The notes under the pieces are model-generated. The model worked only from the letters and a program-made list of their open reading frames with translations. It searched no databases and had not been told where the DNA came from. Of a stretch of DNA of 4,668 nucleotides, positions 1 to 4,112 are shown one piece after another. Made by a program: the position numbers and the translations under genes. Positions within the stretch are counted from its first letter, which is position 1; every line of letters begins with the position of its first letter. This DNA comes from a virus (Duplodnaviria > Heunggongvirae > Uroviricota > Caudoviricetes), in IMG/VR virus record IMGVR_UViG_3300012155_000088, positions 1 through 4,668 of that record; one strand, written 5' to 3'.

Positions 1-100
1 ACCCATCTTTACGCATTTGATCTGGAACAGGTTTAACAGCGGATTATCAGGTCATTAAGCAAATATAACGCCCTGAGAATTTCGACAGGCAAAAGAAAAA

Positions 101-123
101 GGGGTTAGCATTTAGCTAACCCC
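101..123 (-). terminator. Rho-independent terminator hairpin (9-bp stem GGGGTTAGC/GCTAACCCC, 5-nt loop) immediately 3' of the tRNA fragment; possibly bidirectional
   Basis: Seen in sequence: perfect 9-bp inverted repeat at 101-109 and 115-123. On the minus strand it is followed by TTTTTCTTTT (complement of 91-100); on the plus strand by TTATCTTATTT (124-134). It lies about 10 nt downstream of the tRNA CCA end. Terminator function is inferred from this structure. Confidence 0.55.
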
Positions 124-133
124 TTATCTTATT

Positions 134-193
134 TGGCGGAAGCGCAGAGATTCGAACTCTGGAACCCTTTCGAGTCGCCGGTTTTCAAGACCG
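134..193 (-). tRNA. serT: Partial tRNA-Ser(UGA): 3' 60 nt only (anticodon stem-loop, long variable arm, T arm, acceptor 3' strand, CCA); 5' half absent; likely att core copy at the element boundary
   Basis: Reverse complement of 134-193 reads CGGTCTTGAAAACCGGCGACTCGAAAGGGTTCCAGAGTTCGAATCTCTGCGCTTCCGCCA. It contains an anticodon loop CTTGAAA (anticodon UGA), a long class-II variable arm, a T-loop GTTCGAATC and a terminal CCA. From memory it matches the 3' part of E. coli serT with about one mismatch. Sequence beyond 193 (AAGAAAAATAAAG...) cannot form the D arm or acceptor 5' strand, so the gene is truncated. Confidence 0.8.
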
Positions 194-334: not shown

Positions 335-1354
335 CTACTTACTGACCACAAGCGGCAAATCCAGTGTTGGGGTGATTTTGGTTTTACGATCGTAAATCAA
401 CACCTGATTTTCTGTTTTGTGTCCACTGAAAATTTGTTTGTCGCGACTGCTGCCTTCGTAATCTGAAATCCCTTTGGCTTTTATGTCATGGAAGTTGCAC
501 CCAAACGGAACGCCGGCTTTTTGCTCGGCTGCACGTTTAGCCTGATTCCACCAGTTGTTCAGCGTCTTGGCTATTACCTTCCCGCCTTTGGTTGTGTTGA
601 TCACATACTCGCATGTGCCGGAAGATACATTTCGGGCTAACTGGATCGCCGTACGTAATCGCGGAGACCATTCCTTGATTTGTTTAGTGCCGGTCTTGTT
701 TTGCTCAATGTAAATCCCTTTATCCATAATATCCTGCCATTTCAGCTCGAGTACATCACCGAGCCTTGCCGCACAAAGATAGGATATCTCCATTGCAATA
801 CGTAACTGTGGAATTGCTTCCGCATATATTGCAGCATACTGTTCATCGGTGATGTAAACAGTACGGGCTTTAAGTGTGAATTTTCTGACTCCTTTGCATG
901 GATTATTTTTCACATACCCACGCTCATATCCCCATCCGTATACACGGCTCAGACTTGCCAGTTCATGGTTTGCCTGGGTCTTGCTCTCAAGTCCTCGCTT
1001 ATCCATGAAAATTCTTACCTGTTCAATTTTTACATTATCAGCAAGCACTTTTCCGAATACTGCCAACAATACCCTTTGATGTTGCCGATAATCTTTTTGG
1101 GTTCGGGGGGCCAGTTCTGTAAATGCAGGGGAGTCCATAAACATGTGCCATAATTTAGCGACGGTCATTATGTTGTGGAGTTTTGCTTTTTCCAGCTCAT
1201 AATTTTGCCAGACTTTAGCTACGCTGGTTTCCCGCACTCTTCCGAGCCCTATAGTTCTTGTGCTTCCTTCGGGTTTCCATACGTAACTGTAACCATTCGA
1301 TCTAACACGCGGTGGTAGTGCATTATCTTTTTTGTTTTTTCTTGGTCTTCCCAT
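335..1354 (-). CDS. int: Tyrosine-type site-specific integrase, phage lambda Int family (339 aa)
   Basis: The N-terminus MGRPRKNKKDNALPPRVRSNGYSYVWKPEGSTRTIGLGRV parallels the lambda Int arm-binding domain (MGRRRSHERRDLPPNLYIRNNGYYCYRDPRTGKEFGLGRD, from memory). The catalytic-domain blocks AARLGDV (Arg I), YIEQNKTG (Lys), FHDIK (His), FSGHK (His II) and LIYDRK (Tyr nucleophile) are in lambda-like order. RBS GAGG sits 9 nt upstream of the ATG at 1354. The gene lies next to the tRNA-derived att site. Confidence 0.95.
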   Translation of the reverse strand: MGRPRKNKKDNALPPRVRSNGYSYVWKPEGSTRTIGLGRVRETSVAKVWQNYELEKAKLHNIMTVAKLWHMFMDSPAFTELAPRTQKDYRQHQRVLLAVFGKVLADNVKIEQVRIFMDKRGLESKTQANHELASLSRVYGWGYERGYVKNNPCKGVRKFTLKARTVYITDEQYAAIYAEAIPQLRIAMEISYLCAARLGDVLELKWQDIMDKGIYIEQNKTGTKQIKEWSPRLRTAIQLARNVSSGTCEYVINTTKGGKVIAKTLNNWWNQAKRAAEQKAGVPFGCNFHDIKAKGISDYEGSSRDKQIFSGHKTENQVLIYDRKTKITPTLDLPLVVSK

Positions 1355-1574
1355 TGTTCAGCGCCTCAAAATCGGGTTCAGCGGAAACCAGTTCAGGTGC
1401 TTTTGGCATCGTAGTCAGTCCGTGTGGAATATCCCTGCGAAGAACTATTGGTTCGTTTTTAGGACCGATTACAAATGGGATACCGTGCAGCCTTAACTGG
1501 TGTTGCTGTTTTGTGTATCGCTCGTATTTCGTGATCTCTTGAATCTCTGCTGGCGATAGAGTTAATTCGTACAT
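1323..1574 (-). CDS. xis: Excisionase (lambda Xis-like, 83 aa); its 3' end overlaps the int start by 32 nt
   Basis: Small basic protein immediately upstream of int and overlapping it, as in lambda xis-int. The N-terminus MYELTL resembles lambda Xis MYLTLQEW and the basic tail NNGKTKKKQKR resembles lambda RIRNGKKAKS (from memory). Only a weak AAGG lies about 12 nt upstream of the ATG. Confidence 0.8.
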   Translation of the reverse strand: MYELTLSPAEIQEITKYERYTKQQHQLRLHGIPFVIGPKNEPIVLRRDIPHGLTTMPKAPELVSAEPDFEALNNGKTKKKQKR

Positions 1575-1640: not shown

Positions 1641-4112
1641 TTAAAAATCAACCGGATTCGGGATCAGTTTTTGCCAGATAGCTGAAACGTATTTTGCCTG
1701 GTAACGAGCGTCATCAAGTGCATTGTGGCACTCACCTTCGAATGGAATATCCGTTATGGCATCGAAGTCTATGGCTTTCCCCAGCTCAACGATTGTGCGT
1801 ACATCGCGATCGTTGCAGTAGCGCCACGGGCAGGGGATACCCTGTCGTTCGTATGAACGGCGTAAAATCACGTTGTCGAAGTTGGCTCCATTCCCCCAGA
1901 CCTGGACAAAAAATTCACCGGAGTTTTCGTCGATAAATTCCCGCAATTGCAGTAGTGCATCATCTAACGGAATTTCATCGGTCAGAAGGGCAGATTGCGC
2001 CTCGCGTGATTGCTTGAGCCACCATTTTATGGTGTCACGATCAATGACTCCGCCAGTAGTTTCCAGATCGATGGTCTTGCTAAATTCCGGCCCCATATCT
2101 CCGGTTTGCGGATCGAAAAATATTGCACCTATTGAGATAATCGGGGCATCTGGATTTTTTCCCATGGTTTCAAGGTCGATCATTAGATGGTCACACGTCC
2201 CGCTGGTGGATGTGCTTTCATGATGACCGTTCACCTTAACTGAGTGATCTGTCGCCTCACCAGTTTCATTATCGCTGGCGTGGTCCTGAGCGCTGCCAGC
2301 ATTCTCCTTGTGTTGATGTTCAGCGCCTTCCATTTCCTCTGGATCATTTTCCTGAACTTCAACCTGATTCTCTTCATCGAATGTTTCCTGGTATGTTGCG
2401 TCGCCCATAACCGCGCCACAATCAGGGCAGTTGCCGCCACCGCTCTGACCGCAGGCGGTGCAGACTTTTTCCGGTTCCTGTTGCGCTACTGGCTCAGGTT
2501 GTTTCGTTTCTGGCTCGTTTTGTAACGCATTTTGGCTGTTTTGTTCCGCTTTCTGGTCGTTCTGTTCCGATTCTTGCTGGTTCTGGTTTACAGAATCGCG
2601 GGTTTCAATCCCCTTCACCCATTTCGGATCATTCGGGTCGCTAATCCCTGCAACAAATTCTCCGCGAGAGGCAGCAAGCAACTTATCGGCGTCAGGCTGG
2701 CTGATATTGGCTGCCTGCATAATTTTGTTTACTTCGTCAGCGGTAACTTTTACCGGCTCTGGTTGTGCGGTCGTGTCAGATGCACCAGTATTTTGTTGTG
2801 AACCTGAGTATGTACCGTTTTTGCGGGCGAAATATTCTTCTTTCGTGATTTCAGTAGCCCCGGCAGCCAGCGCCTTATCCAGACCAGAAAGTTTGTTTGC
2901 ACGACCATATTTTTCGCCATCCTTATCTGTGAAGAGGAAGTAGAACGGCCCCTCACGCTCTACAGATGGTTCGACTTCCACTTTGCATTCGGTTTTTTCG
3001 TTGTCCGGAATTGCCGTTTCCACTGCATCAGTTTCTGGTACTGGCGACGAGAGAGTATCAGTTGCGCTCTGATTTGTTCCTTCATCTTCAAACACGCCCT
3101 TTGTAGTCAGGTATTCAGTAATGTATTTGTTCAGTGCCACAGGGTCTTTGTGAATGTCGATCGGACGTTCACGGACAAGGCCAAAAATAGTCTGGCGGTC
3201 GTAGCGAAGGGCATCAGGCTGTTTGCGCATTGATGCCGAGATACGCTTCCAGTCTTCGCGGTCGTTGTCGATAACTTCATTTTTTGCCCAGCGATGGATG
3301 CTGCCGTCAATGTTTCCGGCATCAATGTCACCAGGCCACAGAGCGTAGGCCAGTTCATCATCCAGTGTTTTCCATGTCTGCTTGTATTCGCGACGAATGG
3401 TGGCAGTGGCTGGGGGGATTTTCGCTACTGAGTTTTCAGTGTTCTGCCGGTTGACTCTGGCGCGGGCAAGATCAACAACAGACGTGTATTTCCCGGTTTC
3501 TTTGCGTTCGGCTTCGCGACGTTTTTTCCAGGTGCGTAATTCTGTCTGGATCTCAGGCCATTTTGCACCCGGCTTACATTTATGTTTAACCCACCTGATG
3601 GCGAGCAGCTTAAGCTCTGAATACATGACGTTAACTTCAGGCATTTTCATCAATGCCTCAACGATATGCCCGTTGAATGTTGTCATGTCCTCCTGCAGTA
3701 ATTCCTGAGCACTAATCACCATATCAACGGTGATGTTTTCACATGTACCGAACTTAACCAGGACCGCGTTCTGTACTTCAAGGGACAGCTTGTCAAAATT
3801 GACGTTCATCGGATCGGATTCTGGTTCGACCGGAACAAAGGAAGCGCCTTCCTCATCCCAGCGGTTTTCCAGCATATATTCGGTATCCCAGGAGTCGATG
3901 GCAGGGCGGGGCATGCCGGGTTTATCCTCGCAAACAAGAAATTTATAAGCGCAGTCCTGAGCAGTCGGATATTGCTCCAGGAATTGCCAGGTAAATTTGG
4001 CACGGGCGCGGTGTTCGTCGCCGGCTTCAATGGCAGTGGCTACAGCGACTGCACCTTCTTCCTTTATTGCCTGTTCGTCCGGAATGGCGGCGCAAATAAA
4101 GACTTTACTCAT
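1641..4112 (-). CDS. Large modular prophage exonuclease (823 aa): unassigned N-terminal region, acidic Q/E/N-rich linker with Cys4 zinc ribbon (possibly RecE-like), C-terminal DnaQ-like DEDDh 3'-5' exonuclease domain
   Basis: Single uninterrupted 823-codon ORF with RBS GAGGT 8 nt upstream of the ATG at 4112. Exo I motif MIDLETMG (D646, E648), Exo II WGNGANFDNVIL (D746) and Exo III ECHNALDDARY (H796, D801) are seen directly, with spacing typical of DEDDh exonucleases. Zinc-ribbon motif CTACGQSGGGNCPDC at residues 551-565 (nt 2418-2462). The central segment DADKLLAASRGEFVAGISDPNDPKWVKGIETRD and the Cys4 block appear, from memory, to resemble the middle of E. coli Rac RecE. Confidence 0.85.
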   Translation of the reverse strand: MSKVFICAAIPDEQAIKEEGAVAVATAIEAGDEHRARAKFTWQFLEQYPTAQDCAYKFLVCEDKPGMPRPAIDSWDTEYMLENRWDEEGASFVPVEPESDPMNVNFDKLSLEVQNAVLVKFGTCENITVDMVISAQELLQEDMTTFNGHIVEALMKMPEVNVMYSELKLLAIRWVKHKCKPGAKWPEIQTELRTWKKRREAERKETGKYTSVVDLARARVNRQNTENSVAKIPPATATIRREYKQTWKTLDDELAYALWPGDIDAGNIDGSIHRWAKNEVIDNDREDWKRISASMRKQPDALRYDRQTIFGLVRERPIDIHKDPVALNKYITEYLTTKGVFEDEGTNQSATDTLSSPVPETDAVETAIPDNEKTECKVEVEPSVEREGPFYFLFTDKDGEKYGRANKLSGLDKALAAGATEITKEEYFARKNGTYSGSQQNTGASDTTAQPEPVKVTADEVNKIMQAANISQPDADKLLAASRGEFVAGISDPNDPKWVKGIETRDSVNQNQQESEQNDQKAEQNSQNALQNEPETKQPEPVAQQEPEKVCTACGQSGGGNCPDCGAVMGDATYQETFDEENQVEVQENDPEEMEGAEHQHKENAGSAQDHASDNETGEATDHSVKVNGHHESTSTSGTCDHLMIDLETMGKNPDAPIISIGAIFFDPQTGDMGPEFSKTIDLETTGGVIDRDTIKWWLKQSREAQSALLTDEIPLDDALLQLREFIDENSGEFFVQVWGNGANFDNVILRRSYERQGIPCPWRYCNDRDVRTIVELGKAIDFDAITDIPFEGECHNALDDARYQAKYVSAIWQKLIPNPVDF

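Follow-up and report, generated by a model that had tools for sequence, protein, structure and literature searches.

A lysine at the second catalytic arginine position of an Sp4-like prophage integrase appears to be a clade-defining substitution

The DNA analysed here, a stretch of 4,668 nucleotides that we refer to as the window, is one end of an Escherichia coli lambdoid prophage and contains an integrase gene (int) whose product has a lysine, Lys292, at the position of the second catalytic arginine (Arg II) of tyrosine recombinases. We consider it highly probable that int encodes a functional lambda-type tyrosine integrase of a prophage resembling Sp4/CP-933M, inserted in the 3' part of serT beside yccA, and that Lys292 is a clade-defining residue. 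Comparison with related sequences indicates that this lysine is an ancient and fixed substitution that characterizes a large group of phage integrases, and that it does not represent a lesion. The sequence, alignment, conservation and selection data come from the present analysis, and the data on the mobility of close relatives come from the literature. The features of the window are listed in Table 1.

Table 1. Positions of the features discussed in the text, numbered from the first nucleotide of the window.
Feature	Position	Strand	Basis and remarks
Chromosomal serT intrinsic terminator hairpin	99..125	minus	Terminator scan; identical to K-12; bacterial side of the junction
att core, 65 bp, common to K-12 attB and Evi attP	129..193	minus	Three-way alignment of window, Evi attP and K-12 serT
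Phage arm, core to int stop codon	194..269		Three direct repeats AAGAAAAAT[A/C]A at 194-204, 204-214 and 259-269 (repeat search)
int, lambda-type tyrosine integrase	335..1354	minus	339-aa open reading frame; arm-binding, core-binding and catalytic domains
H312 (His II/III) to Y321 (nucleophile)	392..421	minus	Reading and alignments; H312 CAC 421-419, Y321 TAC 394-392
Box II, F288-H289-D290-I291-K292-A293-K294	473..493	minus	Direct reading; K292 at Arg II position; TTC 493-491, CAT 490-488, GAC 487-485, ATA 484-482, AAA 481-479, GCC 478-476, AAA 475-473
Catalytic Lys K220 (EQNKTG), lambda K235	695..697	minus	phmmer and MAFFT alignment
Box I, Y192-L-C194-A-A-R197-L-G-D200	755..781	minus	Arg I AGG 766-764; Asp I; C194 TGT 775-773
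DUF4224 protein, 83 aa, overlaps int start	1323..1574	minus	PF13986, E 1.8e-9; PHROG 1266 'excisionase', E 6.5e-23
Exonuclease-type protein, 823 aa	1641-4112	minus	Rv2179c-like 3'-5' exoribonuclease domain over the C-terminal 170 residues (PF16473, E 2e-66)

Residues 168-323 of Int match the Pfam phage integrase family PF00589 with a score of 34.6 bits, the gathering cut-off being 27.1. This score is low for a bona fide integrase, probably as a consequence of a box I that reads YLCAAR and lacks TGxR, and screening against NCBIfam gave no specific family and just a sub-threshold match to XerC. When Int was compared by phmmer with all PDB sequences, only lambda integrase entries were retrieved (1z1b, 5j0n, 1z1g, 1z19, 1p7d and 1ae9; best E-value 7.5e-18), and the alignment with lambda Int extends over the full length, starting at residue 1 of both proteins. 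An AlphaFold model of Int, calculated without DNA, has a mean pLDDT of 79, with low values over the C-terminal 40 residues that contain His II and the tyrosine. The top Foldseek match of this model is full-length lambda Int (1z1b_A; E-value 6.7e-17; 334 aligned columns), and the leading matches (lambda Int, Tn1549 Int, XerA/D, Cre and IntI) identify the fold of the catalytic domain. The modelled residues 17-60 form three beta strands and a helix, corresponding to the arm-binding region of lambda Int (residues 1-64); homology to this N-terminal domain, which is seen in the phmmer alignment, the model and the structural alignment, places Int among the lambda-type integrases. As to PF00589, the profile match, the tyrosine nucleophile and the fold are all present, and Int departs from the canonical R-K-H-R-H pentad at Arg II alone. 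A minority of the family is documented to have a lysine at this position, which gives no ground for exclusion.

Int and lambda Int (1z1b, 1z1g, 5j0n, 1p7d and 1ae9) share the three-domain organization and the motif MGRxR...LPP...Y at the start of the protein, and lambda Int is the best structural match, although the two proteins are only 22% identical. The genetic organization is also alike, with an att site after int and a small gene in the xis position before it. The systems differ in that the partner gene encodes a DUF4224 protein and not lambda Xis, and in that the target is a tRNA gene, whereas the attB of lambda lies between gal and bio. The catalytic R, D, K, H, H and Y can all be aligned: R197 corresponds to R212 of lambda Int, D200 to D215, K220 to K235, H289 to H308, H312 to H333 and Y321 to Y342, and the tyrosine follows the second histidine by nine residues in both proteins. 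Y321 is conserved in 116 of 120 aligned sequences. Two differences are found within the motifs themselves, namely the lysine for Arg II and 'CAAR' in box I where lambda has 'TGQR'; in addition, the distance from His I to His II is two residues shorter in Int. In the phmmer alignment, 'nfhdikakg' of Int is paired with 'tfhelrsls' of lambda Int, so that K292 occupies the position of R311 (Arg II), and K292 again falls in the R311 column in MAFFT alignments of 11 sequences (lambda Int plus ten phage integrases) and of 120 sequences. The first-pass annotation had read FHDIK, with the AAA codon at nucleotides 479-481 of the minus strand, as a lysine at Arg II, had regarded the other catalytic positions as intact, and had proposed an alignment with lambda Int and homologues to verify the column; direct reading and the three alignments bear out these assignments.

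The sequence FHDIKAKGISD (residues 288-298) of Int conforms to the box II motif FHD[ILV]KAKG[IV]SD of the integrases with lysine at Arg II (K-type). Among the 120 nearest cluster representatives, with 55-97% identity to Int, 116 have the core of this motif, [FY]HD[ILV]K; three of the four exceptions represent a truncated or frameshifted variant, and the fourth has a motif that does not fit. More distant relatives were taken from an exhaustive HMMER search, one per 50%-identity cluster. The 118 representatives obtained in this way have a lysine in 90 cases (29-54% identity to the query) and an arginine in 27 (21-34%). A neighbour-joining tree of 117 taxa, rooted on lambda, requires only two changes between lysine and arginine, and a single pure-lysine clade holds 86 of the 90 K sequences, the query among them. 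Named phages with a lysine at Arg II are Evi, Chris1, vB_EcoM-606R7, BUCT708, KpF5, ST64B, ZF40 and mEp390, some of which use the codon AAA and others AAG; Pseudomonas phage F10 and lambda have an arginine. The dN/dS ratio of int is 0.038 in comparison with Sp4 (dS 0.37) and 0.025 in comparison with Evi, so that int is under strong purifying selection. That the lysine might simply define a sub-family had been one of two possibilities raised in the first-pass annotation, together with the proposal to examine its conservation there. It proved to be universal in the clade, the 90 distant K-type representatives form essentially one clade, and the evidence supports this possibility. A lysine at Arg II is a known and tolerated sub-family signature, and int is nearly identical to known genes.

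A lysine at this position is rare among tyrosine recombinases as a whole. Gibb et al. (2010) found Arg II to be an arginine in 99.1% and a lysine in 0.5% of more than 12,000 tyrosine recombinases (PMC2943603), and Fan et al. noted a small number of natural lysine substitutions (PMC4381057). The main text of a classification paper on tyrosine recombinases does not mention the lysine, and lambda-like integrases formed no subgroup in it (PMC8138268). Activity is retained in three enzymes with a lysine at Arg II, Cre R292K, vaccinia TopIB R223K and Pal_Y-Int_1 (PMC2943603, PMC12884075). [quoted passage not shown] Both are point mutants of Arg-type enzymes, with ligation defects, and in this respect they differ from Int. 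A 2026 study described two natural Lys-at-Arg-II integrases, of which Pal_Y-Int_1 was efficient, with integration in 18.7% of cells receiving the plasmid, and Pal_Y-Int_2 failed the integration assay (PMC12884075). Pal_Y-Int_1 was assigned by its authors to another subgroup, Y-BPP1Arm. Our literature search found no purified and biochemically assayed K-type integrase of the clade described here; the purified 'IntA' in a paper on ST64B (PMC12455584) is a different chromosomal integrase and was not counted.

Given the ligation defect of Cre R292K, a kinetic cost of the lysine, or a need for its compensation, is plausible. Box I of Int has Cys194 in place of the usual threonine of 'TGxR' (YLCAAR, residues 192-197). 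A cysteine three residues before Arg I (YLCxxR) is present in 80 of the 90 K-type sequences and in none of the 27 R-type sequences, whereas Thr-Gly is found in 24 of these 27 R-type relatives and in lambda; the glycine of 'TG' (position 195) is also lost in the K-type sequences. One explanation for this tight co-variation, which the build-up of covalent intermediate by Cre R292K would fit, is that the active site of the K-type clade has been re-tuned by the lysine together with the box I cysteine. Its kinetics would then differ, for instance because ligation is slower or the covalent intermediate persists for longer, and the changed kinetics would be compensated or exploited for the control of directionality. 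However, there are only about two independent lysine/arginine events, so that phylogenetic hitch-hiking in a single clade could account for the co-variation, and we regard a re-tuned active site as quite unlikely. The proposition that Lys-type lambda-like integrases are a mechanistically distinct variant, in which lysine and cysteine would have co-evolved and the balance between cleavage and ligation would be shifted relative to Arg-type enzymes, is also an unlikely one; if true, the shifted balance could affect the reversibility or tightness of integration by prophages that target tRNA-Ser genes.

Several relatives with the lysine are mobile, which indirectly supports our preferred reading of int as a functional gene. 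Evi (LR597642) is a coliphage from infant faecal samples (PMC10910852) whose K-type Int is 99.4% identical to that of the window; its attP shares the 65-bp serT core and the arm sequence with the window. In the Evi record the annotation is that of a shorter 'mobile element protein'. The integrase of prophage Sp4 (CP-933M) of E. coli O157:H7 Sakai/EDL933, ECs_1055, is 97% identical (10 amino-acid differences) and has FHDIK; Sp4 occupies the same serT/yccA locus and has the same neighbours, a DUF4224 xis gene and a gene for an 823-aa 3'-5' exonuclease, with several base changes in the phage arm beside the core. Asadulghani et al. reported that Sp4 was excised and circularized after mitomycin C treatment, and packaged, and inferred that the integrase seems capable of mediating excision by itself (PMC2669165). 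Circles were seen only after mitomycin C, and the authors judged the Sp4 Xis to be probably non-functional (PMC2669165). Because other Sakai prophages such as Sp14 carry related integrases, Sp4 may have been excised by action in trans. ST64B, with a K-type Int 50% identical to that of the window, excises under oxidative stress (PMC12455584); it has also been described as cryptic. The source entry of ZF40 (K-type) reads 'induced lysogen', and an attP is annotated for mEp390 (K-type). Evi, ST64B, ZF40, mEp390 and Chris1 are members of the K-type clade that were isolated as particles or from induced lysogens.

These data also bear on the other possibility raised by the first-pass annotation, that the change reduces activity and that the element is no longer excisable. 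In its strongest form, this would be a degenerative arginine-to-lysine mutation that cripples the recombinase and locks the prophage in the chromosome. The 99.1% conservation of Arg II, the lowered activity or ligation defects of arginine-to-lysine mutants of Cre, XerCD and TopIB, and a Pfam score of merely 34.6 bits could be taken in this sense. Yet the lysine is present in every intact close homologue and throughout the clade down to about 29% identity, both lysine codons are in use, the dN/dS of int is 0.03-0.07, and near-identical integrases are found in the isolated phage Evi and in the excisable prophage Sp4. A crippled integrase is very improbable, and is effectively refuted because the lysine is conserved; the annotation itself had named universality of the lysine among active integrases of the clade as the outcome that would speak against it. 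Least probable of all is a misalignment in which another arginine, such as R304 in SSRDK (12 residues downstream of K292, and also named in the annotation), is the true Arg II and K292 a bystander, to which the shorter distance between the two histidines in the K-type clade might point, since the F-H-x-x-[R/K] register is the same and ungapped in the three alignments, R-type relatives (21-34% identity) have their arginine in exactly the K292 column within an FHD[IL]-x-AK context, and 69 of the 90 K-type relatives have a gap in the column of R304, where K, A or H stands in ST64B, ZF40 and mEp390.

The first 1.7 kb of the window is 99% identical to many E. coli chromosomes, in which the gene order is yccA, int, the DUF4224 gene and the 3'-5' exonuclease gene. 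In K-12, serT (tRNA-Ser) adjoins yccA, and in E423 and Sakai yccA is located immediately to the left of the junction. The att core (Table 1) is made up of the last 60 nt of serT (134-193), which run from the anticodon stem-loop through CCA, and of the next 5 nt downstream. In the three-way alignment, the window matches the chromosome on the left side of the core and the phage on the right side, which identifies the core as the int-proximal junction between prophage and chromosome, the only prophage junction within the window. A search of the whole window with ARAGORN found no complete tRNA, because merely the 3' 60-nt fragment of serT is present at the junction. Position 173, within the core, is an A in the window and a G in K-12 attB, Evi attP, strain E423 and the junction of Sakai Sp4; in the serT remnant this amounts to a C-to-T change in the region of the variable arm.

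The attP of Evi has its own serT terminator hairpin (Evi 3000-3045, compared with window 99-133), with paired changes that preserve the stem: its arms read GGGGCTACC...GGTAACCCC, and those of the chromosomal hairpin GGGGTTAGC...GCTAACCCC. As the attP carries a copy of the terminator, the phage would supply both the 3' end of the tRNA and a terminator after integration. The AAGAAAAAT[A/C]A repeats in the phage arm are candidate arm-type Int binding sites, and Sakai Sp4 conserves them only in part. Directly 3' of the int stop codon (314-329) there is a perfect 16-bp palindrome, CCAGAAAATTTTCTGG, which could bind a protein or form a weak hairpin. In vB_EcoM-606R7 (1682-1768), a K-type integrase gene whose product is 55% identical to that of the window adjoins the tRNA-Ser(CGA) gene serU and mtfA. 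The targeting of tRNA-Ser genes, serT here and serU in 606R7, may therefore be a trait of the clade.

Upstream of int, the 83-aa DUF4224 protein is likely, from its profile matches, to be the excisionase (directionality factor). A DUF4224 gene precedes int in every relative examined (ST64B, ZF40, mEp390, BUCT708, KpF5, 606R7, F10 and Sp4). Such a partner is not peculiar to K-type integrases, as the Arg-type Pseudomonas phage F10 has one. The authors of the O157 Sakai study considered the DUF4224 gene probably non-functional, for it has no recognisable DNA-binding motif (PMC2669165); despite this doubt, the gene is conserved across genera. The long, acidic and low-complexity N-terminal part of the 823-aa protein encoded further upstream matched no Pfam family. 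In related phages this protein is labelled 'exodeoxyribonuclease VIII' or RecE-like, which is not obviously backed by the PF16473 match.

The scheme that follows is inferred, both for the chemistry (Lys292 and any compensation by Cys194) and for the arm sites and the function of Xis. Tyr321 would attack the scissile phosphate while the ammonium group of Lys292, taking the role of the Arg II guanidinium, would form a hydrogen bond to a non-bridging oxygen of this phosphate and neutralize it; the remaining active site (R197, D200, K220, H289 and H312) is canonical. The N-terminal domain of Int would bind arm-type sites, for which the direct repeats are the candidates, and Int and the DUF4224 protein would recombine two 65-bp serT-derived core copies, resulting in excision of the prophage. 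Because the lysine is universal in a clade that includes mobile elements, it has no specific bearing on the excision of the present copy. Excision hinges instead on the other junction, on gene expression and on the A, private to the window, at position 173 of the core. Should position 173 fall within the strand-exchange overlap and the other core copy have a G, this mismatch would outweigh K292 for excision.

For annotation, this means that a prophage integrase should not be taken for dead because its second catalytic arginine is a lysine. It is the normal residue in a large enterobacterial clade that includes Sp4/CP-933M of O157 and ST64B of Salmonella. For studies of how a lysine works in the active site of a tyrosine recombinase, this clade complements the mutants Cre R292K and TopIB R223K with natural enzymes, and the paired Thr-to-Cys change in box I provides a concrete residue for probing how the lysine is accommodated.
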